Shown here: in pieces, positions 1,516 through 57,028 of the stretch
Layout: each line of letters opens with the position of its first letter
Numbering within the stretch: the first letter of the stretch is position 1
Source: a virus
Taxonomy: Duplodnaviria; Caudoviricetes
Reading direction: 5' to 3' (one strand)
DNA: 64,000 bases
IMG/VR virus record: IMGVR_UViG_3300030376_008775
Coordinates: 58,739 to 122,738 of that record
Notes under the pieces: model-generated
What the model was told of the DNA's origin: nothing
What the model saw: only the letters and a program-made list of their open reading frames with translations
Database searches by the model: none
Position numbers and translations under genes: made by a program

Positions 1516-1524
1516 GGTTAAGGA

Positions 1525-2784: not shown

Positions 2785-2785
2785 A

Positions 2786-12157: not shown

Positions 12158-12216
12158 ATTCAAGGTAATTCATTTAGCCATAGGTAGTGTTCTAAAAAGG
12201 CAAATATAGGAAAATA

Positions 12217-13372: not shown

Positions 13373-13388
13373 ATTTTGGAGACACACA

Positions 13389-14850: not shown

Positions 14851-14851
14851 G

Positions 14852-15787: not shown

Positions 15788-15814
15788 AAATATTTGAAAA
15801 ATGTACTAGAAATA
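15755..15814. repeat. imperfect direct tandem repeat (about 27 bp x2) across the dioxygenase stop codon
   Basis: AAAATATTTGATAAAGTACTGGAAATA (15755-15781) versus AAAATATTTGAAAAATGTACTAGAAATA (15787-15814). Confidence 0.55.
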
Positions 15815-15850
15815 TATTTAAGTGTATTAAATTGACGCAAGAGAAAAAAT

Positions 15851-17406: not shown

Positions 17407-17591
17407 ATTTTGAGATTGGAGATTTAGTAGAATGGACAGAACTAATTGGCGACGGCCTTTTAGTTAAAGATCGTGGACTAGGAATTGTAGTTAAAAAAGT
17501 TGGTAACTTTTACAAAGTTCATCGAGCAATTAAACAAGATATTATAAACTTCAACATAAATGAGATAAAAAAAATTAATGAAAATGTATAA
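17388..17591 (+). CDS. small hypothetical protein (SH3/KOW-like)
   Basis: FEIGDLV..GLGIVV; overlaps both neighbouring genes. Confidence 0.5.
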   Translation: MDERNLNFEIGDLVEWTELIGDGLLVKDRGLGIVVKKVGNFYKVHRAIKQDIINFNINEIKKINENV

Positions 17592-18420: not shown

Positions 18421-19283
18421 GAGTTATAGTTACTGGCGGCGAAGGATTTGTAGGGTCAAACCTTATTAAACACTTAGTTCAACAAGATGAGATCCACAGC
18501 GTTTTTAGCTTGGACAATCAATTTACTAGCAGTAAAGACAATATAGTTCATAATAAAAAAGTAAGGTATTGGACTGGCTCCACTACCAGTATCAATAGAA
18601 TTTTAATGAATTGGGATGTAGATGCTGTTTTTCATTTTGGAGAATACTCAAGAATTGATCCTAGTTTTGATGATCTTGATGATGTATTTAACTATAATAT
18701 GAAGGGTACCTGGGAAGTAATACAATATTGCAAAAAAAAGAAAATACCTATGATATACTCGGGCTCAAGCAGTAAATTTGGCCACGATAAAAATCAACAT
18801 TTATCTCCGTATGCCTGGACAAAAGCAAAAAATACAGAGATAATTAAAAATTTTTCTGATTGGTTCGGCTTAGAATATAAGATTTTATATTTTCATAATG
18901 TGTATGGCCCCGGACAAATAATGGAAGGAAAATACGCAACAGTTATAGGAATTTTTGAAAAACAAGTAGAAAATGATAAGCCAATAACAGTAGTTTCACC
19001 CGGTTCTCAGAGAAGAGATTTTACGCATGTTGATGATATCGTTGATGGAATTTGGAAAGCGTATAAGAATGCACCTCCGAATACAGAATTTAGCCTAGGC
19101 ACAGGCACAAACTATTCTATTATGGAAATAGCTGAAGCATTTGACCATACTATTGAAGTAATACCCTCAAAAAGAGGCGAACGAAACACTTCTTTAGCCG
19201 ACATAGAAAATACTACAAAAGTCTTAAAATGGCGTCCTACAATCGACGTCATCGAATACATTAAAAACAAAAGGAGAAAATAA
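18417..19283 (+). CDS. NAD-dependent sugar epimerase/dehydratase (extended SDR)
   Basis: VTGGEGFVG, YSGSSS, SPYAWTK (YxxxK), FHNVYGP, RRDFTHVDD. Confidence 0.9.
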   Translation: MRVIVTGGEGFVGSNLIKHLVQQDEIHSVFSLDNQFTSSKDNIVHNKKVRYWTGSTTSINRILMNWDVDAVFHFGEYSRIDPSFDDLDDVFNYNMKGTWEVIQYCKKKKIPMIYSGSSSKFGHDKNQHLSPYAWTKAKNTEIIKNFSDWFGLEYKILYFHNVYGPGQIMEGKYATVIGIFEKQVENDKPITVVSPGSQRRDFTHVDDIVDGIWKAYKNAPPNTEFSLGTGTNYSIMEIAEAFDHTIEVIPSKRGERNTSLADIENTTKVLKWRPTIDVIEYIKNKRRK

Positions 19284-33611: not shown

Positions 33612-35417
33612 ATGGCAACAACAGATGTAAAAGAACTAGCGATAGATTATACCGCAAGAAATTTCTCTTCAATCAGGGAAGAGCTGGTAACATACGCAAA
33701 AAGATATTACCCTGATACTTTTAAAGACTTTAATGAAGCATCTTTCGGCGCTTTAATGTTAGATATGGTTTCCTATGTAGGAGATATATTATCATTCTAT
33801 ACTGATTACCAAGCCAATGAAAGCTTTTTGCAGACTGCATTGGAATATAATAATGTAATTAAGTTAGCTAGACAATTAGGGTATAAATTTAATGCGTCTC
33901 CAACGGCCCACGGTATTCTTCAATTTTATATTTTAGTGCCTGTAGCATCTGTTGGAGGTGGCCCCGACACAAATTATTTACCGATATTGAAAAGAGGAAC
34001 AACTCTTAACTCTACAAATGGGGCCAGCTATATTCTTGTTGAAGATATTAATTTTGCCAATTCTTCAAATGAAGTAGTCGTAGGAGCTGTAAATGATGTA
34101 ACTGGCGCCCCCACAAGTTACGCGATTAAAGCGTCCGGGGCCGTAATTTCTGGCCAGTTTGCAATTTTAGATTTTGAAATTGGAGAATTTGAAAAATTTA
34201 GAAAAATAGAAATTCCCGGAGGACAAATTGTATCAGAGATAGTTTCAGTAACCGACAGTAACGGAAATGAGTACACAGAAGTAGACTACCTATCACAAGA
34301 TGTAGTATATAGCACAATCGTTAATCCGGATGCAGATCAAAGAATTATGACGCCTAGTATCATTAAGCCAGTCGCTGTTCCAAGAAGGTTTGTTTTAGAG
34401 AGAGAAGCACAAAATACATTTATTATCTTTGGCCATGGATCCGAATCTGACCTAAGAACTGACCCAGTAGCTGAACCAAATAAAGTTATTCTTGATTTAC
34501 ACGGCAAAGATTATGTTACTGATAAAAGTTTTGATCCTAACAATCTTATAAGCTCTGATAAATTAGGTGTTGGGCCGGCCAACACAACACTCACTGTTGT
34601 ATTTCGAACAAATCGCTCGAACACAGTAAACTCACCAGTAGGTGCTGTAACACGCGTTGGAACTAGTAATTTTAGATTTAATAGTGCTTTTAGTTTAAAT
34701 GGCAGCAGTATGAACAGTGTGATTAACTCATTACAGGTTAATAACGAAACTCCAATTTTAGGAGATCCAATAAATGCTTCTACCGATGAGATCAGACAAA
34801 AGGCATACGGTTCATTTTTTAGTCAAAACAGAGCGGTAACACTGCAAGATTACAAAAATCTAGTGTATTCTATGCCTTTACGTTTTGGTTCAATTTCGCG
34901 CTGTAGTATGGTAAAAGACAGCGATTCCTTTAAAAGAAATTTAAATTTATATGTTTTAAGCAAGAATAACAATGGTACTTTAACAAATTCAAACTCTACA
35001 TTAAAATTAAATTTAAAAACTTGGCTCAATAAGTATAGAATGATTAATGATAGTGTTGATATTTTAGACGCTAGAATTATTAATCTAGGAGTTACTTTTG
35101 ATATTATAGGTCGTAGGGGATTCAATAAAGCAACTATTCTAAACGATTGTTTACAAGCATTAGGAAACTTATTTGCAGTTGCTCCTGACATAGGTGAATT
35201 TTTAGAAATAACAACCATTTATAAAACTTTAAATTTAGTTGAAGGTGTTGCTGACACTGTTAATGTTGAAGTTAATCAAAAATTAGGTTCTCTTTACTCT
35301 GATACGTTTTTTGATATTGAGAGCGCTTATTCGGCAGATCGCAGATTTATAAGATTTCCTATTGACACTATATACGAATTTAAATATTCAACTGATTTTG
35401 AGGGTACAATAAGATAA
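33612..35417 (+). CDS. baseplate wedge protein, T4 gp6/baseplate-J-like
   Basis: IDYTARNFSSI, DFNEASFG, SYVGDILSFY, ESFLQTA, ARQLGY, FGHG, QNRAVTLQDY. Confidence 0.9.
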   Translation: MATTDVKELAIDYTARNFSSIREELVTYAKRYYPDTFKDFNEASFGALMLDMVSYVGDILSFYTDYQANESFLQTALEYNNVIKLARQLGYKFNASPTAHGILQFYILVPVASVGGGPDTNYLPILKRGTTLNSTNGASYILVEDINFANSSNEVVVGAVNDVTGAPTSYAIKASGAVISGQFAILDFEIGEFEKFRKIEIPGGQIVSEIVSVTDSNGNEYTEVDYLSQDVVYSTIVNPDADQRIMTPSIIKPVAVPRRFVLEREAQNTFIIFGHGSESDLRTDPVAEPNKVILDLHGKDYVTDKSFDPNNLISSDKLGVGPANTTLTVVFRTNRSNTVNSPVGAVTRVGTSNFRFNSAFSLNGSSMNSVINSLQVNNETPILGDPINASTDEIRQKAYGSFFSQNRAVTLQDYKNLVYSMPLRFGSISRCSMVKDSDSFKRNLNLYVLSKNNNGTLTNSNSTLKLNLKTWLNKYRMINDSVDILDARIINLGVTFDIIGRRGFNKATILNDCLQALGNLFAVAPDIGEFLEITTIYKTLNLVEGVADTVNVEVNQKLGSLYSDTFFDIESAYSADRRFIRFPIDTIYEFKYSTDFEGTIR

Positions 35418-37054
35418 TGGCTATCAAAAGATACACTGCAGACAAAGATAACACTATAACGAATGCATTCGAAGAGAACCTTACGACTAGGGCTACTGGA
35501 TCAAATATGGGTGCTTCTGATGTACTTGAGGTATTTTCTATCTATGGGCAAACGTTTAGCTCTGCATCTACAACCGGAATAACACAAACACAAGAGCTAT
35601 CTCGCGTTTTAGTTCAATTTCCGGTTGCAGATGTTATAGCAGATAGAGCTGCCGGCCATATTCCTGCTTCAGGAAGTGTAGACTTCTATTTGTGTATGTA
35701 CAATGCTAAACATGGCGAGACAGTACCAAAACAAGCAACATATGTTGTTGTACCTGTCTCTTCTTCTTGGGAAGAGGGTATCGGACTTGATATGGAAAAC
35801 TATCAAGATTTAACAAATAACAAAGAAGGCTCTACTTGGATTAAAAGAGCTGGAAACACTAGCTGGAATACTATCGGAGGAACTTACTTAACTGCAGCTG
35901 CAGGAAATAATTATGGAGACCGAAGACAAACAGTAACATTAGAAAATGGAACAGAAGATTTAAAAATTGATGTTACTGACGATGTAGAAAGGTGGATTAA
36001 AGGTACATTAGCAGCGGGAGGTTTTCCAAACTATGGATTTGGAGTATTCTTAACATCTAGTCAAGAAGCTTACTTTTCCAGCTCGGCAGGTACTTTCTCA
36101 AGTGGAAACTCAATTCAAAATGTTTCTGGAGCAACACGCTCTTATTACACAAAAAGATTTTTTGCTAGAACTAGTCAATTTTTTCACAAGAGGCCAGCTG
36201 TTGAAGCAAGATGGGATTCATCAATAAAAGATAATCGAGGAAATGTACAATATAGTAGTTCCTTATTGTCGGCAACCGATAATTTAAATACTGTTTATTT
36301 ATATAATTTTGTTAATGGCCAATTAAAAAATATTCCTGGGATTGCAGATGCGTCTAAAAGAATATATGTCCAGTTGTTTTCTGGATCAAGCACTCCTTCC
36401 GGATCACCAATTGATTTAGTTACTACGACTGATTTTACAACTACTGCTGTACCAACTGTGGTAACCGGAGGCTACGTTGCAACAGGAATATATTCGGCAT
36501 CTTTTGCATTGACCGCTGCAGCTCCTCCACTAAGTAAAATATTTGATGTGTGGTACTTGGATGGTACCAATAAGCTCGGCGCGCAAGTAAACACTTCATC
36601 TTTCGAACCTAGTGTTTTTAAAAGTTCTACTGAAAACGTGCCTAGCTCATACGTTATAAACATTAATAATCTTAAATCTAGTTACAACAACAATGAAATT
36701 GCTAGGTTTAGAGTATTTACTAGGCTAAAAGATTGGAATCCTACAATATATACAAGAGCAATTGCAAAAGTAGAAAATTACTTGTTAGACGATATGTATT
36801 TCAAAATCAATAGAACTGTTGATGATGAAAATATTATATCGTATGGAACTGGCAGTACATCACCTCAAGCAGTTGGTACCAATACTTCTTACACTAGATT
36901 ATCTTATGATATATCTGGTTCTTATTTTGATTTGGACATGTCGATCTTAGAGCCTGGGTATATGTATTATATACAAGTTGCATATTATGATAACAACTCT
37001 TACAAACAATTTAATCAAACATTTAATTTTAAAGTAGAAGACAACGGATATTAG
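35417..37054 (+). CDS. virion structural protein with DNRLRE/CBM-like N-terminal domain
   Basis: ADKDNTI..NMGAS..SRVLVQF..SWEEG..IDVT..W..NYGF pattern; Ser/Thr/Gly rich. Confidence 0.55.
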   Translation: MAIKRYTADKDNTITNAFEENLTTRATGSNMGASDVLEVFSIYGQTFSSASTTGITQTQELSRVLVQFPVADVIADRAAGHIPASGSVDFYLCMYNAKHGETVPKQATYVVVPVSSSWEEGIGLDMENYQDLTNNKEGSTWIKRAGNTSWNTIGGTYLTAAAGNNYGDRRQTVTLENGTEDLKIDVTDDVERWIKGTLAAGGFPNYGFGVFLTSSQEAYFSSSAGTFSSGNSIQNVSGATRSYYTKRFFARTSQFFHKRPAVEARWDSSIKDNRGNVQYSSSLLSATDNLNTVYLYNFVNGQLKNIPGIADASKRIYVQLFSGSSTPSGSPIDLVTTTDFTTTAVPTVVTGGYVATGIYSASFALTAAAPPLSKIFDVWYLDGTNKLGAQVNTSSFEPSVFKSSTENVPSSYVININNLKSSYNNNEIARFRVFTRLKDWNPTIYTRAIAKVENYLLDDMYFKINRTVDDENIISYGTGSTSPQAVGTNTSYTRLSYDISGSYFDLDMSILEPGYMYYIQVAYYDNNSYKQFNQTFNFKVEDNGY

Positions 37055-37061
37055 GATCTAG

Positions 37062-46000: not shown

Positions 46001-46001
46001 A
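37062..46001 (+). CDS. giant (2979 aa) baseplate wedge/tail protein with LamG (concanavalin-like) domain
   Basis: ITIEFWLK, DGKWHHYAIT, LYLDG, VDEFRYW, YFKFNEG, DYSG (LamG). IYKTKGT..FRNL (P2 gpI/T4 gp7-like wedge motif). Confidence 0.7.
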   Translation: MDKKFTQNKFSEQQKSLANLFTGVVIGSSSTTASFSDDAESSNFVKSYKEQENRFVPQINFATASNFAKFGSATSYYEDAYTRIHNQYPYDGSHREKVLWNLSSSYLDKYVFDNLYPRTNGFININSGSNSYTSTKASEYYSSSAPQYVSFKGGPHADPNGNFKLDISTGLSTTSISKANIYDTGSKRNNNLEINTDNGITIEFWLKKNGWPTTPDAGSHKEVILNVTTTGSVNNDSYCILYLSSSAKDNLYFNITSGSVSSTTSAAFLFDTELTDIADGKWHHYAITAKTSGSVTAANLYLDGVFKTKQVSGSVLNPVTASTQGALGAWAGHLKAAGNTFFGPGYGNLVSASVDEFRYWKTERNAKQIGRYYISDVNGGTNTDLANVDLGVYFKFNEGITQTSSVDQTVLDYSGRLSNGRIVNYNSTNGRSINSAIVQSGKSSLEFKDPIVYSFHPTVKSSLADLKIKGNEHDFNNSNSLINSIPAWIIENDQTEGTGQLANLIQICANYLDSLYLQVEALPTIRNINYASSSAKPHFFNDRLLKDYGFNVDEILTDVSLFSSANTRDENRVFERKLYEVKNQIYKNIYNNLVHIYKTKGTKKSFRNLMRCIGIDEELIRLNLYGMNTDWQAQTNTRDVSSKTKYADFFNNNQAVVYGYPEPGNSNSRSFISGSGDATSGIDKLSSITIEADVLFPKYPLNSSANNKNFPFLSSSIFGMNGVKHPEDADNLSWPATNINASSSLQVYAVRKQKQTSVDNPEVFFMLSGSMLTAPITSSTYSDVYQNSKWKLAVRLKHRSQGAGLDFVSGSISDEVIDVSLFGAQIIADSVLNQFNISGTVQDSLKDGPFIEAKRIFAGAYRNDFTGSILQRADTFITNVRYWNSFIEDETLFYHAKNDQSYGTQHPYRNTYLFEGKKTTGLSTTEMPKIESLALNWNFNQVTSSDSSGRFVVSDFSSGSNESSDYKLSNITQRQHTGRGDFFTFSSSEVVEKKFEPSTRLVPFDQINSDDMVEVVDFEGEIFTRESRPQEYFFAFEKSMYANISDEMLNMFATIRDFHNIVGEPVNRYRKEYKEMEKLRQLFFRRVGNTPDLDKFIEYYKWIDNSISTMLMNLVPATANFANSVRTLIESHALERNKIETKFPTLELNQPEPIGQIKAINELDYDWKHGHSPISGKQNDNCLYWKDRAERNGTATTSGNSAVDAQRETIRRVANTVVSGSTYVLRKLTRPYKFTAKRSEDFTIDNIKLNFAKTELNRSNPTENIVLQRIKNFKDCNDDKELRSKRKIDFQANVNGALLNGATVAPFTIYSSSVSTGYKGALSVFSNQVEINNNHIDAYGTETQAPLQGPFSNIHVGGKKSRKAEPFSTTDRVEEYVLSASATKITLKQVPSDKPQSSYFLDEIAKRPVVIKNIKSTTSSVYLGNYSKDYQIVQTVGADTQRGWLKDNFGSVTQVTPEILNLSGNINFSNFDRSNNSLKSVTIADRFSGPGSPEAMSPGYLDPASHTFSVYNGINYRNITVRLPRSNVTFTSSNSAPAAQNYQFKPFGGNPDQNLRTLRTGVPLRSLLRHPMSTEGADMYLSAPNGSFITASIHKVNRNKKNSPIPFGVFVINHALRDNGFVQHAIPQSDRQYTWITASLKNSMAGPNINTSLFYGGGGDGTTAPLGYSVKSNDTTFISASSVGITNATLFVDFANLNILVNDPLDLSSNLISSSTGEYRQTNITTIPQVEVLNSLINHRQGPYGWPSWKQTRGGLNPIVRSHRKTNTFSTIDRSAPVFDVLPYSWPDNIMENATKSFVDGRRQIINLTESVVTINYKPMHIDVFMKGIGNNGLPADTNKALSQKFKFTYGNETAYFAEDRIFNSLTADNYKDILDASRSRSEAYKAIVGLYSPDSADATSVVNPVQQFGSLKASQIVWPRTRNTFLYRTNARNSYTEQAGYGSNGYDRISHRSFWRNSIEDRKRTDLTALNSQGLVLSQSSFIGVRPSSNTYSGSTNAGALPGLSVWPLDGRYTGTGADLIIDGEGRAMPFGSIQIGAEQFILDAGVGNKSAGSGYPARNASISGELFSSGMYRSMTYNVGGGPNTVDVANRFVTASARYHGVDWNMSAYSGSGRRLGTINTRPQVLQYTASSNIEWTTNIDSGKNPWYDSYDDYAADLRKIGKDYSVVPEFNISDHMHYYVNEKKSDFLSEMPTDKLIIQGIHNSSSVNSRFYEDYSHSDFLKNFDLVINDHKEIADVKTINLTCHGLKKLLPYNGFYPVTRTLQMATLLSESIGSRIVGSGSGNDAVYAPSVYPPLPDVQGLQALLQPLMAPGILYNTIKSGIAVDWPLYTGSAPTAGITGQVFTTLVDVKNYISSSANYRLPFEAIYNLDNIPISKEGDVKEIYALTNETTDAHFSWTGNRNNDLYERAMNNFLAESVNLFLDSGKLTSFKSKPMSEVSFKNGVNYRMSIDIQKTAGFLMTEGASSDSIASSDLWKSANFVTQSFAWHGTAKRGIIYGPAVRFFDVKSTGRLSSSGWPYCEQNDPAFAPYTPPYFYGKATVDLVYTNTVDHTETPSLSTIFAYTSASYSNDLNNIPTGSYYTSSVAVRTNGLPWRTIVSSSSPAIQTMMQVSSSINLFGRTNSLLQTVAPDGTPISFTDPEDPTDQERWVISTKYECPVLNFNHYTKDTKARGMWNGYGNIPDYSTEGIEIKLRETNPTALFNPSINSTEGSLLMKFFGAEQKRKSVGKLAKDFTKSISECIVAIPYLPGNNASNSLAAAYDCIYSRDDDKYFFPIKFGSEGTKFVGSVPAGGAQLKEEDKASESTEGLIEKMKKFVFPPRYDWVNNEEPVLSPFAMFAFEFKHYFSRQELADMWQGVMPDIATKVVPETTSLSIPVAPGELMGEFFAKISQEDNSNSDITNTMKNLKWMVFKVKQRAKNVYANITEDITDNKSGTFFGVGELFNENELPYSYNWPYDYCSLVELAKFEAGIEIK

Positions 46002-47005
46002 TGGAATTTTTTGATAAAAAAGAAGAGGTTTTGGATATCCAAATAACTCCTTTAGGGAAGAGATTGATGCAAATGGGGCAATTTAAACCTCATTCTTATG
46101 CTTTTTTTGATAATGATATCATATACGATTCAAAATTTGCAGGCGTAACAGAAACTCAAAATAATACCCAAGAGAGAATCAAAGAAGTTCCACGACTGAA
46201 ACAACAAGTATACCTTTATTCGCCGGAAGAAAAAATCAATAGCAATACCGAAGATATTGATTTAGTAACGTATAATGAAAATTTATTTCAAGATAAGTCT
46301 GTAACAGGGCCCCAATCTTTAGCGAGCGAATACAATATACAAAAACAAGAATCGAGACAACTTGAGCTTGAATCATTCGGCCCATTAGGAAATATGGCTT
46401 TTCACGCCGATTCTATTCCTGCTTGGGATATAAGATTTTTTGAAGCCACTTTAACAGGCTCAACTTCTATTGTAACAACGAATAATCAAAGAATACCAAA
46501 CTTAGACTGTGATGTTCAGTATAAATTCAACCTTAAGAGTATAGATCTTGATATGATAGAAGAGCCCGAAGACGAGGCTTTGCTTTCAGAGATACAAGAT
46601 AATCTTTTTATAACTACTACTCCAGTCAGCAAAGATGGTAGCTATCTAGAACTTGAGCCTGAAGCTTTTTTTATTAGAGCCAGCGAGAATAATACAAATT
46701 TTTTAAATGACAATTTTGACATTGAAATTTTTAAGGTCGGCTCGGAAGGAGAAGAACAACAATTATTTTTTGATGATGAAGGCACTAGTTTTGAAGATAG
46801 TCCATTGGCAGTTGAATACTGGTTTAACGTCGAGGTCGACGCAGAGATTCCTGATAGTATATATTGTAAACAAGTCAAATCAGAAAAACTTGAAGTTACC
46901 TATACCGATAAGTTCTTGTTTAACTGTGATGATCTGATTGATGAAAATCTAGCAGTTGATCAAATCTACAACATTCCTGCTGGAGATACGGAGCCTTGTG
47001 ATTAA
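46001..47005 (+). CDS. tail/baseplate structural protein
   Basis: N-terminus (EVLDIQITPLGKRLMQMG.F....YAFFDNDIIY) is paralogous to that of 53754..54734. Confidence 0.55.
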   Translation: MEFFDKKEEVLDIQITPLGKRLMQMGQFKPHSYAFFDNDIIYDSKFAGVTETQNNTQERIKEVPRLKQQVYLYSPEEKINSNTEDIDLVTYNENLFQDKSVTGPQSLASEYNIQKQESRQLELESFGPLGNMAFHADSIPAWDIRFFEATLTGSTSIVTTNNQRIPNLDCDVQYKFNLKSIDLDMIEEPEDEALLSEIQDNLFITTTPVSKDGSYLELEPEAFFIRASENNTNFLNDNFDIEIFKVGSEGEEQQLFFDDEGTSFEDSPLAVEYWFNVEVDAEIPDSIYCKQVKSEKLEVTYTDKFLFNCDDLIDENLAVDQIYNIPAGDTEPCD

Positions 47006-50000
47006 TGGCAGATAGCATAACAAATATTTCAAATCTAGTACAGACTAGCGTACCTAAAGTCTCTATACAAAGAATTGTATTAGAAACTGGCGCCCCACCA
47101 GTAAAAGTACAAAAAGATCCTCATATTGTTTTACCAAATGAGCTGCAGCCACCAACAAATACTGACACTAGTTTCGAAAAACTTTTAAGGGCAGCGCTTA
47201 AAATAGACCTAACACTTTCTTTAAAAGGCTTTGGAAGAAGAAACCTTAAAAGTGATAATTTATTATCAGATATATTTGATAATTTAAATTTAATGAAATT
47301 ACTAAAAACTTCGGTATATCAAATTGATAACCAAGGTTTAAAAAATCTAGGTATCGCTGCAGGTTTTGCTAATATGTTTGGTTCTCCTGGCAATCCTAAT
47401 GGAGTCGGAACAGGTGTTTCTTATCAAGAAATATATAATTTAATTAAAGATAGCCCACTGGATATTGTAACTAAAAAAGAAATTAATATTTTTGAAGAAT
47501 TAAGTTCTTTAGAGGAAGGAGATTTAGCTAGATTTTCGCATAGGACATCAGATGGTTCAACTTTTTATAACTTTCCTTTTAGACTAGATACATTTGTTAG
47601 TCTCAATCCTGACCCTAAATTCCTAGCTTATATGGTTGTTACGGAAGTTGACAATGATATGCTAATTAATCATATCAAAGAAACAATTGGTGGCTCTGCC
47701 GATTACCAATTACCAACTGAAGTAGAACAATATTTACAGACTCTCAATGTTGATATATCAAACAAATCAATTTCATTTGATATTGTAATCAACAATAGTG
47801 GCGTTAATGATCAGGCAGCACTACTACAAAGAACAGATACACAAGAAATTTGGTTCGGTGGTTATCACGAAATGCAAGACGGTACTCTTATGACAGGTGC
47901 CACCCACAATGATCAAACACTCGCTGCAAAAGATAGAGACGTAGTATTAAGGCCAGTACTCATGGCAAATACAAAAATTGTTGACTTGAGAGACGATGAA
48001 GAGATTGAAAAAGTATTCCTTAAGGAACTTTATGAACTAGAAAATGTTTTTGAAGCGATTCAAAAAGCAACAAATCAACCCAAGACAACAACTGAAAAAT
48101 TAAAACTAGAACTACCTGAAAAATTTTCTACTTCCTATATGTCAAAAGGTTTTGATGGAACCCACTCTTACCTTTTTGCTGTTGACAAACTAAAAGTATT
48201 AGCTAATAAATCTTTATTGGCTAGAATAGGACAGAATTTATTAAATTCTAATACACTTGTTAACGACCTAAAAGAGAAAATATTGGGAGATTCAGTGATA
48301 AAACAACTTAGAATCTTTAGAAGAAGAGTTAAAGTTGATGGGTTCGGGCAAAATAGATTAGGTACTCCAAATATAAATCAAGAAAGCTTCAAACACAATG
48401 TTTTGGACGCAGACGTAGAAAATTATTATGAAGATGTGATTCCAAAACGAGTTGCTATTTTAAGAGATGGTCTTAAAAAAATAGAAGGCTTAAGTTTTCT
48501 TGAGACAGCTTTAGATGAAAAAAGATATTGTTATTACTCTTTTAAAGATACAGAACTGAACAATATTAAACACGGAAATTATGAATATTTTTACGAACTT
48601 GTTTTAGAAGATGGTATAAGAAAAACATTAACGGAAAAAATAAAATTTTTGTCTTTGTACTACGAAGATATTAAGTCTTATTATGATTTTATTAATACAA
48701 ATATTGAGGATTGTTATAGTGATTTAACCGATCAATTTAATTTTAGTTTTTTACAAGCGCAAGGATACGGAGACATAGGTAGTACACTTGCAAATATTGT
48801 TGGCCAGATGTCAGATATACTAAAAATGTTCAATCCTCAAAACGCTTCATCATATGGCATGATGAATAAAAAATTATTAATTATTTCTAATCCAATTTCT
48901 GGTAACATACAAGGTTTGATAAAGTTTATAAATACTTGTGAAACTTTTATTTCTAAGATACAAAGTTTGTCGGGAATTAAGACAGGGTTAAACAAGCATT
49001 TAGATCTAGCAGTAACAAACTTAAATACTGAAACAATTGAAGTACCAAATACTGTAAAAGTAACAGAAGTTTTTGCCGACAACGCAAACCTAGAAAATAT
49101 TAATGCTGGATACGAATATATTATTGCTAATGATTTGATTGAAGACGCAACCAAAGCAGATAGCAAAAATTCAATCAGAACAATATCAACAACATTATAT
49201 CTATCAATGGCTAACGCCCAACTGCAAGAAAATTTCTTACTGGACGAAACAAATACTAGTCCGCTAGGAAATATTAGCAACCCAAATAAACTTAGATATT
49301 TTACTCCGACTCAAGTATTTATTGACAATCGAAAATATTTAACTAACTCATTGCCTACAAGCAATTCAGTGTTTTTATCTAGCGTTCTTAAGCCTTTTAG
49401 AGTCGACTTTGATTATTACAAGCCTATAATTTTAGATATTTTAGAATATTATCATAACAAAAATATGGATAGTAAATTAATCTCTATGGGAGAAAAGAAT
49501 AATATAAGGAAACTAATAGATATTGCAGGCAGGTATGGTGTATTGTTTGATAATAGTTTCGTTAAGCAGTTAGATTATTTGTCTGATCCGGCCAAAGATG
49601 AAAATAGTGAAAAATATTCTGACTCATCAAAATTAAAAAATAACCAACAGCAAACAAGCAAAAATACAAGCTTATCTGCATTTCAATTCACACCCGAAGT
49701 TAATGAAGCTTCTGATTATGAAGATAATACATTTGAATCTGATTTAAGTCAGAATATAGAAAATTTCTTATTTGGAATGGTAAGCAATATTGTTTTAAAA
49801 GACGAAAGTCTAATACCAGAAAAGTATAAAGGCCCCGATCTTTCTGGGTATCAGCAGCTGCCTATTTGTCTTCAAGCATTGATAACACAATTTGCACCAC
49901 AGGGGGTACAGATAAAACAGTATTTGGCCGGCCAACCACAATTAGGCTTTGGTTTGTTTAAAGAGACACCCTTGAGTTTAAATACCATTGGCTGGTGGTG

Positions 50001-50691
50001 GTTTAATTACTCAAACGTTGTAGAAGTAAGATATCTTGAACGATACGACTCTTTTTTCAATCCAGTCTGGACTCCCTTAACATCAGATTCATTCAACAAT
50101 CTTGCTGCTTCTGACACTCCAAAAAGAATTATATGTAAATTGTATAAATATGAAAATTCTGCATGGGGAATTAGAAATAATAATAAATTTTTAGAGCTAC
50201 CAATCTTAAATGAGTACTTTATAATCGATCCGGGGGAAGCAACCGTAACAGCAGTTGCAGAGAAAGAAGCCCTATTGGCTATTGACCAAGAGGACGAAAC
50301 AGACGTTGAGACAAAAACAAAACAAGATCTAGATGATATAATTGTTTTAGGAAATAGTCCTGATCTTAAGTCAGCCATAAGCACAGATCCAAAAGTAGTG
50401 CAAAATAAAAATGCAGTTAGGATTAATAGAGTAGCTGAAACCTTAGTTAGTCAAGCTCGTCAACAAACAGAGCCAGTTCCTACTAGGGCAATACAACAAG
50501 CAGAACTAAGAGAAGATATTACCGGCCCGAGTCCAAGAGCAGTGAATACAAATCCACGCGCTATTAATGCTGCAACTAACGCAATTGCCCCACGCGCCCA
50601 AGAGCCCAACAGAGAGGTGCAAGGGGCGCGCGCTCCGCAAGATTCTCAGACTCGTGGTGTAACCGAAGGCCGCGGCGGAGGTTATTCATGA
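47005..50691 (+). CDS. large hypothetical virion protein
   Basis: 1228 aa in the structural block; contains YHEMQDGTLMTGATH. Confidence 0.5.
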   Translation: MADSITNISNLVQTSVPKVSIQRIVLETGAPPVKVQKDPHIVLPNELQPPTNTDTSFEKLLRAALKIDLTLSLKGFGRRNLKSDNLLSDIFDNLNLMKLLKTSVYQIDNQGLKNLGIAAGFANMFGSPGNPNGVGTGVSYQEIYNLIKDSPLDIVTKKEINIFEELSSLEEGDLARFSHRTSDGSTFYNFPFRLDTFVSLNPDPKFLAYMVVTEVDNDMLINHIKETIGGSADYQLPTEVEQYLQTLNVDISNKSISFDIVINNSGVNDQAALLQRTDTQEIWFGGYHEMQDGTLMTGATHNDQTLAAKDRDVVLRPVLMANTKIVDLRDDEEIEKVFLKELYELENVFEAIQKATNQPKTTTEKLKLELPEKFSTSYMSKGFDGTHSYLFAVDKLKVLANKSLLARIGQNLLNSNTLVNDLKEKILGDSVIKQLRIFRRRVKVDGFGQNRLGTPNINQESFKHNVLDADVENYYEDVIPKRVAILRDGLKKIEGLSFLETALDEKRYCYYSFKDTELNNIKHGNYEYFYELVLEDGIRKTLTEKIKFLSLYYEDIKSYYDFINTNIEDCYSDLTDQFNFSFLQAQGYGDIGSTLANIVGQMSDILKMFNPQNASSYGMMNKKLLIISNPISGNIQGLIKFINTCETFISKIQSLSGIKTGLNKHLDLAVTNLNTETIEVPNTVKVTEVFADNANLENINAGYEYIIANDLIEDATKADSKNSIRTISTTLYLSMANAQLQENFLLDETNTSPLGNISNPNKLRYFTPTQVFIDNRKYLTNSLPTSNSVFLSSVLKPFRVDFDYYKPIILDILEYYHNKNMDSKLISMGEKNNIRKLIDIAGRYGVLFDNSFVKQLDYLSDPAKDENSEKYSDSSKLKNNQQQTSKNTSLSAFQFTPEVNEASDYEDNTFESDLSQNIENFLFGMVSNIVLKDESLIPEKYKGPDLSGYQQLPICLQALITQFAPQGVQIKQYLAGQPQLGFGLFKETPLSLNTIGWWWFNYSNVVEVRYLERYDSFFNPVWTPLTSDSFNNLAASDTPKRIICKLYKYENSAWGIRNNNKFLELPILNEYFIIDPGEATVTAVAEKEALLAIDQEDETDVETKTKQDLDDIIVLGNSPDLKSAISTDPKVVQNKNAVRINRVAETLVSQARQQTEPVPTRAIQQAELREDITGPSPRAVNTNPRAINAATNAIAPRAQEPNREVQGARAPQDSQTRGVTEGRGGGYS

Positions 50692-50723
50692 GCGTTCTAA
50701 TTATAATTAACGGATAAATAAAT

Positions 50724-53678
50724 ATGGCACCAGAATTAGATAACAATAACAAACCTTTAGGTTATCAAACTTTATTTGTTAACAGTAAAGAGACTCAAAT
50801 ATTACCATATAAATATGGAATTCCATTAACGGCGCCCTTGCGTTTAGCTAATGATTTTTCTCAAACAACGCCACCGCCTACAGCGTTTGATGTATCTAAC
50901 CAAGATATTGACGATACTGATTTACTACGTTATAATTTAGGTAAATTCTTTTTTAAAATCGGAGAGCAATATAGATTTGTAGACCCGAAGTCAGTTAATG
51001 TTTCCCATACCAAAACGTTGAATCCTAATAAGACATCAATTATTACAGATTTTTCACATTTTAGACCTCCTTTGAGGTATTTTATTGGAGTGAAATCTTT
51101 GTCACCAGAGTTAGAAACTTTTGATTATGGTTTTTTAACAGGTATAGATGGAATTCAAGAAATGCTAGATTTACAAAATCTTGAAATTAGAAATACAACT
51201 TTTATTGCCCTTATATTAGATTTTGATGAGCAAGATAGTAAAAAAGAAAGTCGTTTGGGAGACAGACTAAAGTATCTAGGTGCCAATATTACGGGCGAAG
51301 ATAATGAAAAAGTTTTATTTAACTATTATCTATCCAAAGGAAAAACAACGTCATTAGAACAAAATGCAAGTCCACAATATCTAGGACTCCAGCAAGCATT
51401 TTTACTAGGTACCCCTGGCGCCTTACCTCCTACCTCTGTGCAAAAATTTTTAGATCATACATTTACTTATTCGCATCCCCATTCATTAAGCAAACAAGAT
51501 GATTTTGGAAGCATAAAAGTTTTATATTCGAATGTAATACCGGAGTATAATTTTTATCAAGAATCATATGAAAAAAGCTTGAATAAGTTTAAAAACATAA
51601 CTATCAATGATGTACCAAGTGAATTGTATCTTCCAAATTTATACACCATAATAGAGGAAACTAAAACAGATTTTGAAGAGTATGGAGAAAACTTAAATTA
51701 TAGAATTCACTCAACTTTAAATTATAAAATCGAAGGCAATTCTTTGAGAACTCTTAAAAATGAAAAAGGAGAATATTCCGAAGTAAAAGGAAGAGTTGCA
51801 AATCAGTACCTAGATGAATGGTCAAGAGTTGTAAACACGGACTTTTTAGACACATTTTCTAATTTAGATTTAGCAATTGTTGCAGATAAATATAAAAATT
51901 TAATTTTTTCTCCAAACGCTGTAAAAAATAATGAAGTTAATACTTCAAAAGCAGTGTTTCCTTTTTACAATGAAATTACTTTCAATACAGACACTTCTAA
52001 TAAGATAGCAGATATTTTATCAAATTCAAAATTATTTGATATTTTAGTATTAGATTACATTTGGCAAAAAGAACAAAATGGCGATAGAATGTTTGATATT
52101 AATTTTCATACATATCAAGATTCGATGAACACTCCTTTATCCGACGAAGCAGATGAAAACCTAGGACAACAAATTTTTAATCTTAAACAAGCAGGAGATC
52201 AATATAAAGCTTATGATTTCGATAAGTTTGTAGAAGAAATTAAAAATTTAAATTCCTTCAGTGGAGTAGTCAGCAGCGCTGTACAAGGATCAACTAGATC
52301 TATTTCCGCCAATGGAGAAGAGTTTTCCGATAGTACTTTGAATATATTTGAGAGCGATCCATTGACACGGCTAATTTATAAAATGACATTTTTATCAAAC
52401 TATGCTTCGGTTGTAAAAGAAAATCTTAGAAATTATCAAGATATTGTTAACGGAAAAAGTGCGTATAGTGAAACTCTTTTTTATAGAGTTGAAAAAAGAG
52501 ATATTAATGATAATTTAGTACAAAACTTTTATGTTTTAAACGATTCTGAATTAATCGATGTAAATCTTATTGATACACAAGTTATATACGGAAAAAATTA
52601 TAAATATCAAATATTTGCTGTACAATTGATTATCGGAAATGAGTATTTCTATGTTAAAGGCCCCGACGACCCAAGAGCTTATTTTGATCAAGGAAATCCA
52701 TATTTAACAGCACCAGGATCTACTGATACACGCAAGGGCGAATATACATTTAATTTAATTGCCGATACAAAACAATCGGTCAAATTAATTGAAATACCAT
52801 ACACATCTCCTGCGACAATTAAATTACAAGAAGCACCTCCTGTACCACCAAATATTAATTTTGTCCCTTATGTAGGCGTTGATAATGAAATTTTAATTAC
52901 CTTTAACACTGGAGTAGATGAATATTACGATACATACATTCCAATTTTAGAAGAAGATTTTGAAATAATTGAAAATTCTTCTATAACAAATAATAAAAAT
53001 CAAACTTTATTTAAATCGGAGGGTGACGCAACAGGCTTCGATATGTTTAGAATCTCTGCGGTTCAAATGCCTGAAGGCCCGGAGTCATACACAGACTTTG
53101 GAATCCCAGGCTTAGCTAAACGTGTGACTCTAAATCGTAATTTAGGTGATCCGACTTTTATAGATAGAATTTTACCAAATACAAAATACTGGTATACGTT
53201 TAGAACAAATGACAAAAAACACTTAGAAACAGAAAAAGCTCCTGATTTCTCTAATCCAACAGTTGTTTATCAAATCGAAATGGTAAACAATGAAGGTGCA
53301 ATCTATTTGATTGTAGAGACCTATGACGTAAACTTTTTTAATTCACAGAAAATTATTTTAGAAAAACAAAAAACTAAAACAATGAGAAAATATTTAAGAA
53401 TTACTCCTTCGTTCGACCAAAGTTTAATTAATACAACAGTTGAAGAAGGTGGAACTGACTATTATGAACCACAAATAAATGACTCAATACAAAATTACGT
53501 AGAAAATAATTTAAATGAAGATGTAAGTGGCTTAAAGATAGGCTACAGACAGCAATCTGTTTTTGGAAATCTTGATGATGATACAAATAATAGATTTAAA
53601 ATTCGACTAACATCGAAAAAAACAGGAAGAAAAATTGATATCTTTTTACGGTTTAAGAAACCAACCTTAGAAAAATAA
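50724..53678 (+). CDS. large hypothetical virion protein with probable Ig/FN3-like C-terminal region
   Basis: DTQVIYGKNYKYQI, PPVPPNI, FIDRILPNTKYWYTFR resemble FN3 strands. Confidence 0.5.
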   Translation: MAPELDNNNKPLGYQTLFVNSKETQILPYKYGIPLTAPLRLANDFSQTTPPPTAFDVSNQDIDDTDLLRYNLGKFFFKIGEQYRFVDPKSVNVSHTKTLNPNKTSIITDFSHFRPPLRYFIGVKSLSPELETFDYGFLTGIDGIQEMLDLQNLEIRNTTFIALILDFDEQDSKKESRLGDRLKYLGANITGEDNEKVLFNYYLSKGKTTSLEQNASPQYLGLQQAFLLGTPGALPPTSVQKFLDHTFTYSHPHSLSKQDDFGSIKVLYSNVIPEYNFYQESYEKSLNKFKNITINDVPSELYLPNLYTIIEETKTDFEEYGENLNYRIHSTLNYKIEGNSLRTLKNEKGEYSEVKGRVANQYLDEWSRVVNTDFLDTFSNLDLAIVADKYKNLIFSPNAVKNNEVNTSKAVFPFYNEITFNTDTSNKIADILSNSKLFDILVLDYIWQKEQNGDRMFDINFHTYQDSMNTPLSDEADENLGQQIFNLKQAGDQYKAYDFDKFVEEIKNLNSFSGVVSSAVQGSTRSISANGEEFSDSTLNIFESDPLTRLIYKMTFLSNYASVVKENLRNYQDIVNGKSAYSETLFYRVEKRDINDNLVQNFYVLNDSELIDVNLIDTQVIYGKNYKYQIFAVQLIIGNEYFYVKGPDDPRAYFDQGNPYLTAPGSTDTRKGEYTFNLIADTKQSVKLIEIPYTSPATIKLQEAPPVPPNINFVPYVGVDNEILITFNTGVDEYYDTYIPILEEDFEIIENSSITNNKNQTLFKSEGDATGFDMFRISAVQMPEGPESYTDFGIPGLAKRVTLNRNLGDPTFIDRILPNTKYWYTFRTNDKKHLETEKAPDFSNPTVVYQIEMVNNEGAIYLIVETYDVNFFNSQKIILEKQKTKTMRKYLRITPSFDQSLINTTVEEGGTDYYEPQINDSIQNYVENNLNEDVSGLKIGYRQQSVFGNLDDDTNNRFKIRLTSKKTGRKIDIFLRFKKPTLEK

Positions 53679-53753
53679 TTAATATTAAACAAGAAAGACT
53701 AATTAAAGTAGTACACTATTTATTTAGAATTCTTTATAATTTGGAGAACTTAA

Positions 53754-54734
53754 ATGGGATTTTTAGACAACTCGGGCGATATTATTCTAGACGCCGTATT
53801 AACAGACCTTGGACGTGAAAGATTAGCCAGAGGCGACGGATCTTTCAAAATCACAAAATTTGCTGCAGCTGATGATGAAATTGATTATGCAAAATATAAT
53901 AAAAATAATTCATCCGGCTCTGCTTATTATGACTTGGATATTTTAACAACACCTGTTTTAGAGGCTTTTACAAATAATATTAGCTCTTGTAAACATAAGT
54001 TAATGACAATTCCTCGCAATAACTTACTTTATTTGCCTGTTGTTAAATTGGCAAATAATGTCAATGGTGTTAACGCGGAACTTTGTACAACCACAACTGT
54101 GAGTGGGTTGTATTTGGTGACAGTTGATAACGAGACTTCTGTCAACAAAGTTGGCACAAAAGAGTTATACACGCAGCTTGGAATTATAAGGGGAGATGGA
54201 CAGCCTGCAGGAAATGGTGGTGATGGCTCAACTCAGATTGTCGTTGATCAAGGTTTAGATACAACAAAGATTCCAAGTAGCTTCACATTAGATTCTGATC
54301 TTATGGAAAATCAATATATTATTGAGATCGATGACCGCCTAGGCAAGATCAACACTCCTCTTGAGGCAGGAAATGCTCTAGCAAATCCAAATTTTATTGA
54401 TGACGATAGAATCGCTAGTTATTACTTATCTGCAACAAGTAATCCAAATTTTGTATCTTCATTGCCAGCAGCAACGAATAATGAAGGGACAAACAATAGT
54501 AACATTTCGGCCGTCGCCGGCCCAAGAGGAACAAGATTAAAATTTACAATCAGAGCTTCATTAGAATTAAACACAAGCACTAGTTTATTTTCTCGACTGG
54601 GTGGTACTTTTGGACTCAATACCGATTCAAAGAACTATGGAAGCCACCGCTTTATTGACTCAACAGTAAGGATTACTGGTGTTACAACTGGATACAGGTT
54701 AGATATTCCTGTGCGATTTATTAAAAAAGTCTAA
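53754..54734 (+). CDS. tail/baseplate structural protein
   Basis: MGFLDNSGDIILDAVLTDLGRERLARG..FKITKFAAADDEIDY; GGAG RBS. Confidence 0.6.
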   Translation: MGFLDNSGDIILDAVLTDLGRERLARGDGSFKITKFAAADDEIDYAKYNKNNSSGSAYYDLDILTTPVLEAFTNNISSCKHKLMTIPRNNLLYLPVVKLANNVNGVNAELCTTTTVSGLYLVTVDNETSVNKVGTKELYTQLGIIRGDGQPAGNGGDGSTQIVVDQGLDTTKIPSSFTLDSDLMENQYIIEIDDRLGKINTPLEAGNALANPNFIDDDRIASYYLSATSNPNFVSSLPAATNNEGTNNSNISAVAGPRGTRLKFTIRASLELNTSTSLFSRLGGTFGLNTDSKNYGSHRFIDSTVRITGVTTGYRLDIPVRFIKKV

Positions 54735-54752
54735 ACATATAGGATAAAAATA

Positions 54753-55877
54753 ATGGCAAGCACTTTTAAAACATTTTTAAATAACGATAAGACAACAACA
54801 AGAACTTTATTACACGAAGCAATTCCTGTAACTGGAACAATACTTTCGGGAACATACGGAACTGGTGTTTACGAAGTTGGAGCAGAAGCAAATATTAAGA
54901 ATTATTCACATGGTATGTTTCAATCGGTTTACGATTATCCTTTTTTAAGTTCTTCTGCAAACCATATTTTAGATTTAACTGTGGGCTACTCAACCGGCTC
55001 GGTTCTTTCCGGATCAACAACTGATGCAACGCAAAGAAAAAATAAAGTTAATATCTACAATCAGCTAGCTCAAGTACTTGTTGGACATGATAAAGATGGC
55101 AAGATTCAAAGATTCGACATCGATGGCAATCTTGCTGACGGTGCTGGCAAGATGAATGATGTTTTCTTTATTAACTTCGCGCGCCTATTATCAAAAGATG
55201 AAATTAAGAAAGGTTCATTTAAACTAGATCTTGGTGTGGGCGGTAAATTTGGTACTGCGAATGCTATGGCTGCCCAGATTAGATTAGCAGATACGTCTGG
55301 CTCAGATGGATATTTTGTAAATTCACCTGCAGGGGAGTATGGTGTTTTGTTTGCGTCTAACTTAGTCGGCAGTCCAATTAAGACTGCCCCAACCAAGACT
55401 ACTGAGGCCGCGGGCCTTATCTATTATCAAGCGGGCATAGCAGTTGTTACAGCTTCTGTCTTTATGAGTGGCTCAGAATTAGGTATTTCTGCATCTGCGG
55501 GCGTGCCAGAAATGCAAGTTAATGCCGCCGGCCTAAAGATGACTCAGGCACTTACAAGCTCTGCTTTATCGTCTAGTTGCAATCATATTAGACACAGAAT
55601 TGAAAGCATTGAATTTAACAATACAACAGAATTAAACTCAACAATCTATTTTTGCCGAATGAATAACAACGAGTTTAATTACAGCTCTAACCCAACTTAT
55701 TTGTCTTCAAGTCAAATTGTTACAAAAACTGTTTCGACGGATTTACCTGTGTCATATGTGACAACGTTAGGTCTTTACTCTGCGGATAATGAATTGCTAG
55801 CAACGGCTAAGCTGTCAGAACCTCTTCGCAAAGATCCATCAAATGAGTTAACAGTTAGAGTTAGACTAGATTACTAA
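54753..55877 (+). CDS. tail-collar/fibre-attachment-like structural protein
   Basis: C-terminal TTLGLYSADNELLATAKLSEPLRKD..VRVRLDY; paralogue of the next gene. Confidence 0.6.
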   Translation: MASTFKTFLNNDKTTTRTLLHEAIPVTGTILSGTYGTGVYEVGAEANIKNYSHGMFQSVYDYPFLSSSANHILDLTVGYSTGSVLSGSTTDATQRKNKVNIYNQLAQVLVGHDKDGKIQRFDIDGNLADGAGKMNDVFFINFARLLSKDEIKKGSFKLDLGVGGKFGTANAMAAQIRLADTSGSDGYFVNSPAGEYGVLFASNLVGSPIKTAPTKTTEAAGLIYYQAGIAVVTASVFMSGSELGISASAGVPEMQVNAAGLKMTQALTSSALSSSCNHIRHRIESIEFNNTTELNSTIYFCRMNNNEFNYSSNPTYLSSSQIVTKTVSTDLPVSYVTTLGLYSADNELLATAKLSEPLRKDPSNELTVRVRLDY

Positions 55878-55888
55878 GGTGCTATAAT

Positions 55889-57028
55889 ATGCCTTACTAC
55901 GAATTTGAAAAAAATGATGTTTTTATTAACACCATAGAATTAAATCCGGATTGTAATTTTTTTATATATAAATCGAAAGCTTATTATAAAAACAAAGATC
56001 AACTTCTTTCCAATTCTAACACTCCCTCTGGGCATATCAATCTTTATGAATTAAATGTTAATCGACCTGCAGCAAGTTTGATATACCCATTTTTACCCAA
56101 AGGATCATCTTTGGAAAGATTTAGAACAGTTAGTACTAGTCAATATGCTGCTTTGGACGCCGGCGCCTTGATGCAAGGAACTTATCCTCTGACTGCTTCT
56201 ATAACAACGGCAGTCTATGACACAAGTGCCACAAGAAAGCAAGTTGATGCTCTTAAAAACACTTTAAATTTTTATAAATACAGAAGTCAGCATTATGCTT
56301 TTTCTTCTTCTCTTGGCAATAAAGGAACTCAACGATTATCAATGCTTGACTTTCCCTCTATTTTTTATGGAAGTAATATAAAGCCCGGCACGGTAGATTT
56401 AAGATTTTATTTATCTGGTTCCTTATTAGGAAAGCTAACAGATAAAAATAGAAATGGAGAATTAATCCAATCATCTGGAACAATTTCTGCAAACGATAAC
56501 AAAGTAGCAGGAGTTGTACTTTACAATGAAGGGATTATTATTTTAACCGGATCTTGGGATCTTAACACAACACATACGGCAAAATATGTTACTGATGGAG
56601 GCGCCGCCCAACGTCCAAGATGGAATGCATTTGCAAGAAAAACGGAGGAGACTGTTTCTTCTAGTTACGGAATAAATGTAAAGGGCACACAAAAACTCAA
56701 TATGATGACAATGTTTGCGCATGCTATTCCTGGAGATTTAAATTTTTCTCCTAATCCAACATACGCAACTTTTGATAATGCTGTTAAAAATGAAATAACT
56801 TATGTTACCTCATCGACCTCCTATACTGAGCCCGGAGGTATCAAGCTAGTGAATACAGTGAGTAGCTCATATTTGAACTATGATGAGAAATTTCAAAAAC
56901 AAACTTTTATCTCTAAGATTGGAATATACGACTCAAATCGTAATTTAATCGCAATTGCAAAATTAGCAACTCCTGTTCGCAAAAAAGAAAATGATCAATA
57001 TACATTTAAACTTAAGCTAGATTACTGA
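55889..57028 (+). CDS. tail-collar/fibre-attachment-like structural protein (paralogue)
   Basis: C-terminal SKIGIYDSNRNLIAIAKLATPVRKK..FKLKLDY; shares IKPG/IKKG and G-x-x-x-Y-x-x-G-I motifs with the previous gene. Confidence 0.6.
   Translation: MPYYEFEKNDVFINTIELNPDCNFFIYKSKAYYKNKDQLLSNSNTPSGHINLYELNVNRPAASLIYPFLPKGSSLERFRTVSTSQYAALDAGALMQGTYPLTASITTAVYDTSATRKQVDALKNTLNFYKYRSQHYAFSSSLGNKGTQRLSMLDFPSIFYGSNIKPGTVDLRFYLSGSLLGKLTDKNRNGELIQSSGTISANDNKVAGVVLYNEGIIILTGSWDLNTTHTAKYVTDGGAAQRPRWNAFARKTEETVSSSYGINVKGTQKLNMMTMFAHAIPGDLNFSPNPTYATFDNAVKNEITYVTSSTSYTEPGGIKLVNTVSSSYLNYDEKFQKQTFISKIGIYDSNRNLIAIAKLATPVRKKENDQYTFKLKLDY

Follow-up and report, generated by a model that had tools for sequence, protein, structure and literature searches.

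Glycosylated phage particles are, to our knowledge, known from few cases, and for none of these has a sequon been defined. Freeman and colleagues reportedly showed by chemical means in 2023 that the virions of mycobacteriophages Che8, Corndog and Myrna are O-glycosylated by phage-encoded glycosyltransferases (GTs), the glycans being said to sit on Ser/Thr-rich C-terminal extensions of siphovirus capsid and tail-tube proteins. In other systems, the paired enzymes SdgA and SdgB, both of family GT4, act on Ser-Asp repeats. GtfA and GtfB are the paired GT4 O-glycosyltransferases of the serine-rich repeat adhesins of Gram-positive bacteria (PMC5796085), and the enzymes of the TibC family work in the cytoplasm as protein-serine heptosyltransferases that modify the loops of beta-helical autotransporters, TibC and Aah acting on TibA and AIDA-I (PMC4358343). 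We analysed a stretch of 64 kb (the window), which forms the end of a 122.7-kb IMG/VR contig (IMGVR_UViG_3300030376_008775; CheckV completeness 68%; G000 in the comparisons) and comes from an uncultured marine T4-like phage. Four of its tail proteins (the carriers) are rich in the tripeptide [ST][GAS]S, of which an extended form has one or two hydrophobic residues in front, and a cluster of glycosyltransferase and sugar-synthesis genes lies further upstream. The tripeptide is a selected short linear motif common to a whole clade of phages, and we see an even chance that it is the acceptor or recognition motif of a phage-encoded O-glycosylation of tail and baseplate proteins.

An earlier note on this DNA had put the motif by eye at about 13, 45-50, about 10 and about 7 copies in the four carriers, counts that are exact (Table 1), and had proposed their comparison with shuffled sequences. 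Against shuffles of each whole protein that preserve its composition, which give the expected counts of Table 1, the enrichment is clear, with z between 4.8 and 9.6. Pooled, the carriers contain 80 motifs where 21.3 are expected (3.8-fold); with one preceding hydrophobic residue the figures are 54 and 6.7, and with two they are 31 and 2.1, an excess of 14.7-fold. Within the giant 2979-aa protein, 32 of the motifs follow a hydrophobic residue. Shuffling within blocks of 10, 20 or 40 residues leaves the enrichment in place (z 10-12). Neither Thr in third place ([ST][GAS]T, 19 against 15.9 expected) nor Gly or Ala in first place ([GA][GAS]S, 14 against 15.3) is enriched in the carriers, and no excess is found there for T, N, D, P, V, L, K or E as the middle residue. 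The flanks show preferences as well, for Tyr/Phe and Leu/Val/Ile/Tyr at positions -2 and -1 and for Val/Ala/Thr at position +3.

The motif is encoded by the full Ser, Thr, Gly and Ala codon sets, as varied as elsewhere in the genes, which rules out a DNA-level word or codon artefact and indicates that selection acts on the protein. None of the carriers has a Pfam or PHROG family match. The 2979-aa protein has no internal repeats in a self BLAST, and a cross BLAST among the carriers detects no similarity apart from that of the 374- and 379-aa proteins, distant paralogues (BLASTP E 3e-10) whose TAS and TGS motifs align. Inherited copies of homologous domains thus fail to explain the excess. The spacing of the motifs is irregular, from 1 to 281 residues, and they are spread over the full lengths of the proteins, in agreement with the earlier description of a dispersed rather than tandem motif.

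The near absence of the motif from three large neighbours, on which the earlier note had also remarked, is borne out by 2 copies in the product of 25754-33181 and none in those of 47005-50691 and 50724-53678. Taken together, nine other structural proteins encoded at 21-55 kb have 4 motifs against 15 expected (0.27-fold), a depletion that is also seen with block shuffles (z about -3, as few motifs arising in at most 1/1000 shuffles). The non-structural genes of the contig have 36 motifs against 30 expected. Their sole outlier, the NAD-dependent epimerase at 18417-19283, has 4 motifs against 0.4 (p 0.003), three of them following a hydrophobic residue, and this is probably a chance result among 46 open reading frames (ORFs). 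The 1228- and 984-aa motif-free proteins are hypervariable between relatives (about 24% identity or no match in the complete relative G002) and are perhaps receptor-binding. The 334-aa protein encoded between the giant gene and these two (46001-47005) has a single motif here, yet its family is 3.7-fold enriched across 68 relatives; the set of motif-bearing proteins thus varies slightly by lineage.

Homologues of the 374-aa protein number more than 8000 in marine metagenomes, and those of the 545-aa protein more than 4000. We measured the enrichment of these families in 80 related viral contigs, and the depleted families in 14-59 relatives. The 374 family has 622 motifs against 179.8 expected (3.5-fold) and the 379 family 707 against 174.9 (4.0-fold), and the C-terminal pieces of the giant protein are 2.4-fold enriched. 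Depletion recurs in the families of the 1228-aa (0.52-fold), 984-aa (0.59-fold) and 176-aa proteins, with an overall range of 0.45-0.6-fold, and the primase family stands at 0.95-fold. Members of the 374, 379 and 545 families have 8-14 motifs per protein against 2-3 expected (a mean of 13.7 against 3.2 in the 545 family). The alignments of these three families contain 2-5 fixed, 10-15 polymorphic and 35-62 rare motif columns, the 545 family having 5, 15 and 35. Fixed columns swap within the motif class (TAS, SGS, SAS, TSS, TGS, SSS); thus position 233 of the 374 family reads TAS, SGS, SAS, TSS or TGS in 120 of 121 sequences. What replaces the motif at polymorphic columns is N-G-N, D-G-K, N-A-Q and the like. 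These are the usual residues of exposed turns, which suggests that the sites are exposed turns at which Ser is preferred over the usual turn formers. The earlier idea of a selected short linear motif thus stands, as the motif is selected at the protein level and conserved as a class.

The closest cultured relatives, all distant, are Flavobacterium phage vB_FspM_immuto (immuto; host Flavobacterium sp. LMO8), Microcystis phage Mel-JY01 and the thermophilic Rhodothermus phage RM378, which share with the window phage the gene order around the baseplate module. The motif-rich proteins of immuto are encoded at 84135-85244, 92327-93400 and 96965-100775. In the tail modules of G002, immuto and Mel-JY01 the motif is enriched 2.4-3.3-fold overall and 4.6-7.4-fold in hydrophobic context, with [ST][GAS]T at about 1.0. 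The only enriched ORFs of G002 are the orthologues of the four tail proteins, among them a 5534-aa orthologue of the giant protein (53 motifs against 25.3), two fibre proteins and three small ORFs. Two fibre genes of Mel-JY01 (635-4591) are saturated with the motif, an 805-aa collagen-like protein having 47 copies and a 508-aa protein 24 against 7.5, of which 17 follow a hydrophobic residue. Genome-wide, RM378 has 38 motifs with two preceding hydrophobic residues against 10 expected, and two adjacent unannotated proteins (64825-67547) are enriched.

Phage T4 served as a control. Its gp5-gp12, wac, gp18-gp29, gp48, gp54 and gp34-gp37 contain about 38 motifs against 42 expected, which is no excess. 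Pelagibacter phage HTVC008M, in which no PF00534 glycosyltransferase was found, shows only a weak form; its baseplate proteins are 1.8-fold enriched overall and 1.6-fold in the two-hydrophobic context, with control tripeptides at 1.3-1.4-fold. The motif is therefore not a general property of myovirus tails. The weak excess in HTVC008M indicates that part of the Ser-x-Ser excess is generic to Ser-rich tail proteins; what sets the clade related to RM378, immuto and Mel-JY01 apart is the strength of the enrichment, a first place open to Thr as well as Ser, and the hydrophobic context.

Mapping on predicted structures, another proposal of the earlier note, places the motifs mostly in loops and at strand ends. 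We read AlphaFold2 (AF2) models through their secondary structure and predicted confidence (pLDDT). In the model of the 374-aa protein (pLDDT 62.8) all 10 motifs, and in that of the 545-aa protein (pLDDT 73.6) 9-10 of the 13, lie in loops, in helix caps or just after strand ends. The fold matches of the modelled 545-aa protein are to Ig, FN3 and CBM domains, and it is a chain of such beta-sandwich domains. The 374-aa protein has no fold match (Foldseek best E 0.07; VIA best Z 3.3; unnamed viral clusters only in Atlas), and no fold or sequence match of the motif-rich proteins to T4 proteins was detected. G002 has a fibre protein of 1778 aa (183282-188618, minus strand) with 62 motifs, 59 of them following a hydrophobic residue. 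After a short collagen-like segment, about 1300 of its residues form a sub-repeat with a period of 10 residues. For this repeat PDB gave no significant match and Pfam, apart from the collagen segment, only fragmentary ones, and it may be an undescribed fibre fold.

The sugar-synthesis and glycosyltransferase cluster that the earlier note had placed at 1.5-19 kb is real, and Pfam and NCBIfam matches show it to consist of soluble enzymes at 1.5-19.3 kb. It begins with two adjoining GT4 genes, GT4-A and GT4-B, which are predicted from their E-x7-E motifs to encode active enzymes. The third ORF of this core, of 276 aa, has no Pfam or NCBIfam match; by Atlas language-model features it clusters with PF00534 proteins, which make up 18-65% of cluster members, with a very high score, and it is probably a short, divergent GT-B-like (GT1-like) protein, a lead only. 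A block of PD-(D/E)XK nuclease, GT4-A, GT4-B and 276-aa ORF (739-4887 in the window) is conserved in G000 and in its relatives G002, G004 and G008. Downstream of it the sugar genes differ in each of the four genomes and most island genes have no counterpart at the same site, so that the site following the nuclease and the GT core appears, from gene content, to behave as a hypervariable glycan locus. The island of the window opens with an RpiB-nucleotidyltransferase fusion, a PfkB kinase, a class II aldolase, cupins and a transaldolase, continues with a 581-aa GT with a GT9-like half, a B12 radical SAM enzyme, a FabH-like enzyme, a hexapeptide acyltransferase and a PhyH dioxygenase, and closes with a DegT-type aminotransferase, a GDP-mannose 4,6-dehydratase, a dehydrogenase and the epimerase mentioned above. 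The cytidylyltransferase-like fusion with RpiB, the kinase, the aldolase and the transaldolase could together make a higher-carbon sugar nucleotide by a putative heptose-type pathway. G002 has at this site NeuB, a formyltransferase, a PIG-L deacetylase, a sulfotransferase, a methyltransferase, a GT2 and other GT4 genes. Pfam matched none of the island genes to a flippase, a polymerase or a priming transferase.

GT4-A has orthologues, 58-68% identical to it, in 10 of the 14 long relatives, and the three relatives with a completeness of 90% or more are all among these ten. The four long contigs in which it is missing are 56-81% complete, and by the gene spacing of G000 and G002 the GT site lies beyond their ends. 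Full-length, adjacent orthologues of GT4-A and GT4-B are present in immuto, Mel-JY01, G002, G004 and G008, and RM378 has an orthologue of GT4-A. Among 50,697 phage records, the seven with a GT4-A homologue are the same seven that have a homologue of the 374-aa tail protein. As the GT4 pair is kept across phages of Bacteroidota, Cyanobacteria and Rhodothermus, a phage-borne substrate is favoured over a host-specific one. A T4-style glucosylation of DNA is an unlikely task for these enzymes: no hydroxymethylase of the ThyA (thymidylate-synthase) type was found in G000 and three near-complete relatives, in searches that covered the ThyA family and not TET/JBP-type routes.

In Mel-JY01, directly 3' of the two fibre genes, lies a gene (4747-8430) for a 1227-aa protein that joins a GT4 domain to a sugar-O-methyltransferase-like domain and to a C-terminal part with almost full-length homology to TibC (PDB 4RAP, E 1.2e-68). 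The sole annotation of this protein is 'methyltransferase FkbM'. Its TibC homologue is an accessory gene and the sole enzyme in the clade from a family known to act on proteins; the 581-aa GT of the window has no match to TibC in PDB. TibC-like genes are also found in the megaphage records LR756501, LR756503 and LR756504, where the neighbouring genes are not motif-rich and which are uninformative in this respect.

Compared with the described systems, the window phage resembles the mycobacteriophages in having soluble glycosyltransferases of its own (the two GT4 enzymes with E-x7-E, the 581-aa GT and the third GT-like ORF), for which structural virion proteins are the proposed cytoplasmic substrates. 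It differs in that it belongs to a clade of T4-like myoviruses, in its clade-wide GT core, to which a sugar-synthesis island, variable and up to about 15 kb long, is attached, and in candidate sites that follow a defined short motif and are scattered throughout baseplate and fibre proteins, not gathered in a Ser/Thr-rich C-terminal extension. The proposed hyper-glycosylation, in the cytoplasm, of many loop serines on beta-rich, repetitive surface proteins recalls TibC and Aah, whose substrates, however, are secreted adhesins and not virion proteins; moreover, the window phage and its close relatives have no TibC homologue, and their conserved enzymes are of GT4 and not of the GT9/BAHT type. 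With GtfA/GtfB and SdgA/SdgB the likeness would lie in two adjacent genes of GT4 fold that prime the cytoplasmic O-glycosylation of Ser in short motifs, with variable GTs extending the glycan. Yet both phage GT4 proteins keep E-x7-E, whereas GtfB is a non-catalytic chaperone, and the phage substrates have dispersed motifs instead of long tandem Ser repeats. The phage GTs have no Pfam match to DUF1975, which defines GtfA and GtfB, and score 15-21 bits where the NCBIfam cut-offs for GtfA, SdgA and SdgB are 575-800 (for TIGR02918, GtfA, 16.7 against 574.6). By analogy, the phage system would thus work like the paired GT4 systems and like TibC/Aah, but given these scores, the absence of DUF1975 and the lack of a TibC homologue, it belongs to neither family. 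The baseplate region itself is of T4 type, with gp25-like and gp6-like wedge genes preceding the motif-rich genes, but gp6-gp12 and gp34-gp37 of T4 are without motif excess.

According to the mechanism that we propose, the sequence hydrophobic-hydrophobic-[Ser/Thr]-[Gly/Ala/Ser]-Ser usually at transitions from strand to loop or turn, would be the acceptor or recognition motif for cytoplasmic O-glycosylation of selected tail and baseplate proteins by the soluble enzymes of the phage. The two GT4 enzymes and the third GT-like protein would put the first sugar or sugars on the motif hydroxyl of newly made late proteins, and the variable island downstream would supply unusual nucleotide sugars and more transferases, so that the glycan built on one shared protein code would differ from lineage to lineage. 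Proteins of the inner tail and those that bind receptors would avoid the motif and stay unmodified. That a very abundant marine and freshwater T4-like clade has in this way an O-glycosylation code, read by the three-GT core and elaborated by the hypervariable island, is the fuller form of the proposal, which we put forward tentatively and at somewhat less than even credence. For the earlier note the motifs were attachment sites for the upstream glycosyltransferases. The GT and sugar island, the selection of the motif, its avoidance by neighbours and its absence from T4 support that view in part, and so do the core status of the first GT genes, the lack of a ThyA-type hydroxymethylase and the TibC-family enzyme of Mel-JY01; the link between motif and enzymes, and with it the acceptor residue and the purpose of a sugar coat, we infer. 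Glycosylation offers the best account of enrichment together with avoidance, of the turnover of sites at constant number, of a GT core with a variable island free of export genes, and of the TibC homologue next to fibre genes.

Several observations weigh against glycosylation, and many of these fit a serious alternative, in our opinion the less likely one, in which the motif has a structural role only: it would mark the place where a beta-strand, with two buried hydrophobic residues, gives way to a tight turn or bulge of small hydroxyl residues, as a folding or packing habit of the beta-sandwich domains and trimeric fibres of this clade. The GT genes would then act elsewhere, for instance on the host envelope, on lipids or on DNA. 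The motifs of the G002 fibre keep strictly to a register of 10 residues (hydrophobic, S-G-S, three residues, hydrophobic, then hydrophobic, S-S-S and so on), with D-x-D replacing S-x-S at the same place in every third unit, and this register looks structural. The 545-aa protein resembles Ig, FN3 and CBM sandwiches with the motifs at strand ends; some sites are almost invariant, even across the 374/379-aa paralogues (TAS/TGS); and fixed sites retain the first Ser/Thr and the Gly more faithfully than the last Ser, which gives way to Asn, Ala or Thr, as would suit a turn. HTVC008M, without a PF00534 match, has a 2.9-fold excess of S-[GAS]-S in its baseplate proteins, a weaker form of the same pattern, and RM378 has GT4-A, yet its homologue of the 374 family is not enriched. 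The co-occurrence of the GT4 genes with motif-bearing proteins may simply reflect shared descent. The GT genes themselves are generic GT4 genes, far below every curated NCBIfam cut-off, and give no indication of the acceptor; no TibC homologue was found in G000, G002, G004, G008 or immuto; and our search of the literature on RM378, immuto and Mel-JY01 found nothing on virion glycosylation and no chemical evidence of a glycan. A structural habit alone, however, does not predict that other beta-rich tail proteins of the same phage fall below baseline, that the number of motifs stays constant while sites turn over and N-G and D-G are the losing alternatives, or that third place is closed to Thr, which in turns can usually stand in for Ser. 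Nor does it predict the lack of excess in the T4 homologues of the same baseplate module, and it offers no explanation for the conserved GT core, for the variable island or for a TibC homologue next to fibre genes.

The combination of enrichment, avoidance and conservation as a class would suit any partner that reads the sequence, and recognition of another kind, such as phosphorylation or acylation of Ser or the binding of an assembly chaperone or tail-fibre assembly factor, must be considered, though we think it improbable. The island does encode enzymes that could handle acyl groups (the FabH-like enzyme, the hexapeptide transferase and the radical SAM enzyme), but these stand in a typical sugar-tailoring context with dehydratase and aminotransferase; no protein kinase is among the Pfam matches of the window ORFs, and the glycosyltransferases are the only enzymes conserved along with the motif. 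Scarcely credible is a mere by-product of Ser-rich, low-complexity composition. The carriers are indeed richer in Ser and Thr than their neighbours (Ser about 10-11%), but z remains at about 10 whether whole proteins or 10-residue blocks are shuffled, the related tripeptides are not enriched, and a single Ser run yields overlapping motifs, so that shuffles and control tripeptides contradict such an artefact.

The features discussed are listed in Table 1. The window has a GC content of about 33%, with nearly all genes on the plus strand. The gp25-like and gp6-like wedge genes sit directly 5' of the motif-rich genes, and upstream of the baseplate genes is that of a 1234-aa hub or lysin protein with an amidase domain. 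Downstream of the tail genes come a DnaG-type primase and an ORF that runs off the end of the window (61624-63999), which joins a calcineurin-like phosphoesterase domain (Mre11-type, gp47 family) to AAA_23/SMC_N domains (Rad50-type or gp46-like). The functions of gp47 and gp46 of T4 are on two separate genes.

Table 1. Coordinates of the features in the window, with motif counts given as observed against expected
Feature	Position	Strand	Evidence
GT4-A, core retaining-type GT-B glycosyltransferase	1525..2784	+	PF00534, E 2e-13; intact E-x7-E
GT4-B, second core GT4, adjoining GT4-A	2786..4060	+	PF00534 and GT4-conflict matches; E-x7-E
Third core ORF, 276 aa	4057..4887	+	37% identical in G004 and G008; fused to GT4-B in G002
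Variable sugar-nucleotide synthesis and tailoring island	4884..19283	+	Pfam and NCBIfam matches
gp25-like gene	33194-33571		PF04965 GPW_gp25, 40.4 bits against a cut-off of 27.2
gp6-like baseplate wedge gene	33612-35417		phrog_219 baseplate wedge subunit, E 1.3e-20
Motif-rich baseplate protein, 545 aa, after the gp25-like and gp6-like wedge genes	35417..37054	+	13 against 3.0 motifs
Giant motif-rich tail or baseplate protein, 2979 aa	37062..46001	+	50 against 14.5 motifs, z = 9.6
Two large motif-free tail proteins, 1228 and 984 aa	47005..53678	+	0 against 2.1 and 0 against 1.4 motifs
Motif-rich conserved tail protein, 374 aa	54753..55877	+	10 against 2.1 motifs
Motif-rich distant paralogue of the 374-aa protein, 379 aa	55889..57028	+	7 against 1.4 motifs

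Should the motif prove to be only structural, it would still be a folding signature of the whole clade, useful for recognising tail proteins that otherwise escape annotation. If the GT core does read it, the tails of a very abundant group of aquatic phages would wear a coat of sugars specific to each lineage, with a bearing on adsorption, on resistance to proteases and aggregation, and on the evasion of host surface defences. This would explain why the genomes of the clade contain large auxiliary sugar islands without export genes, and would provide a simple sequence rule for the prediction of substrates and for the engineering of glycosylated proteins. One might then regard the system as the phage counterpart of the diversity of O-antigens or flagellin glycans.

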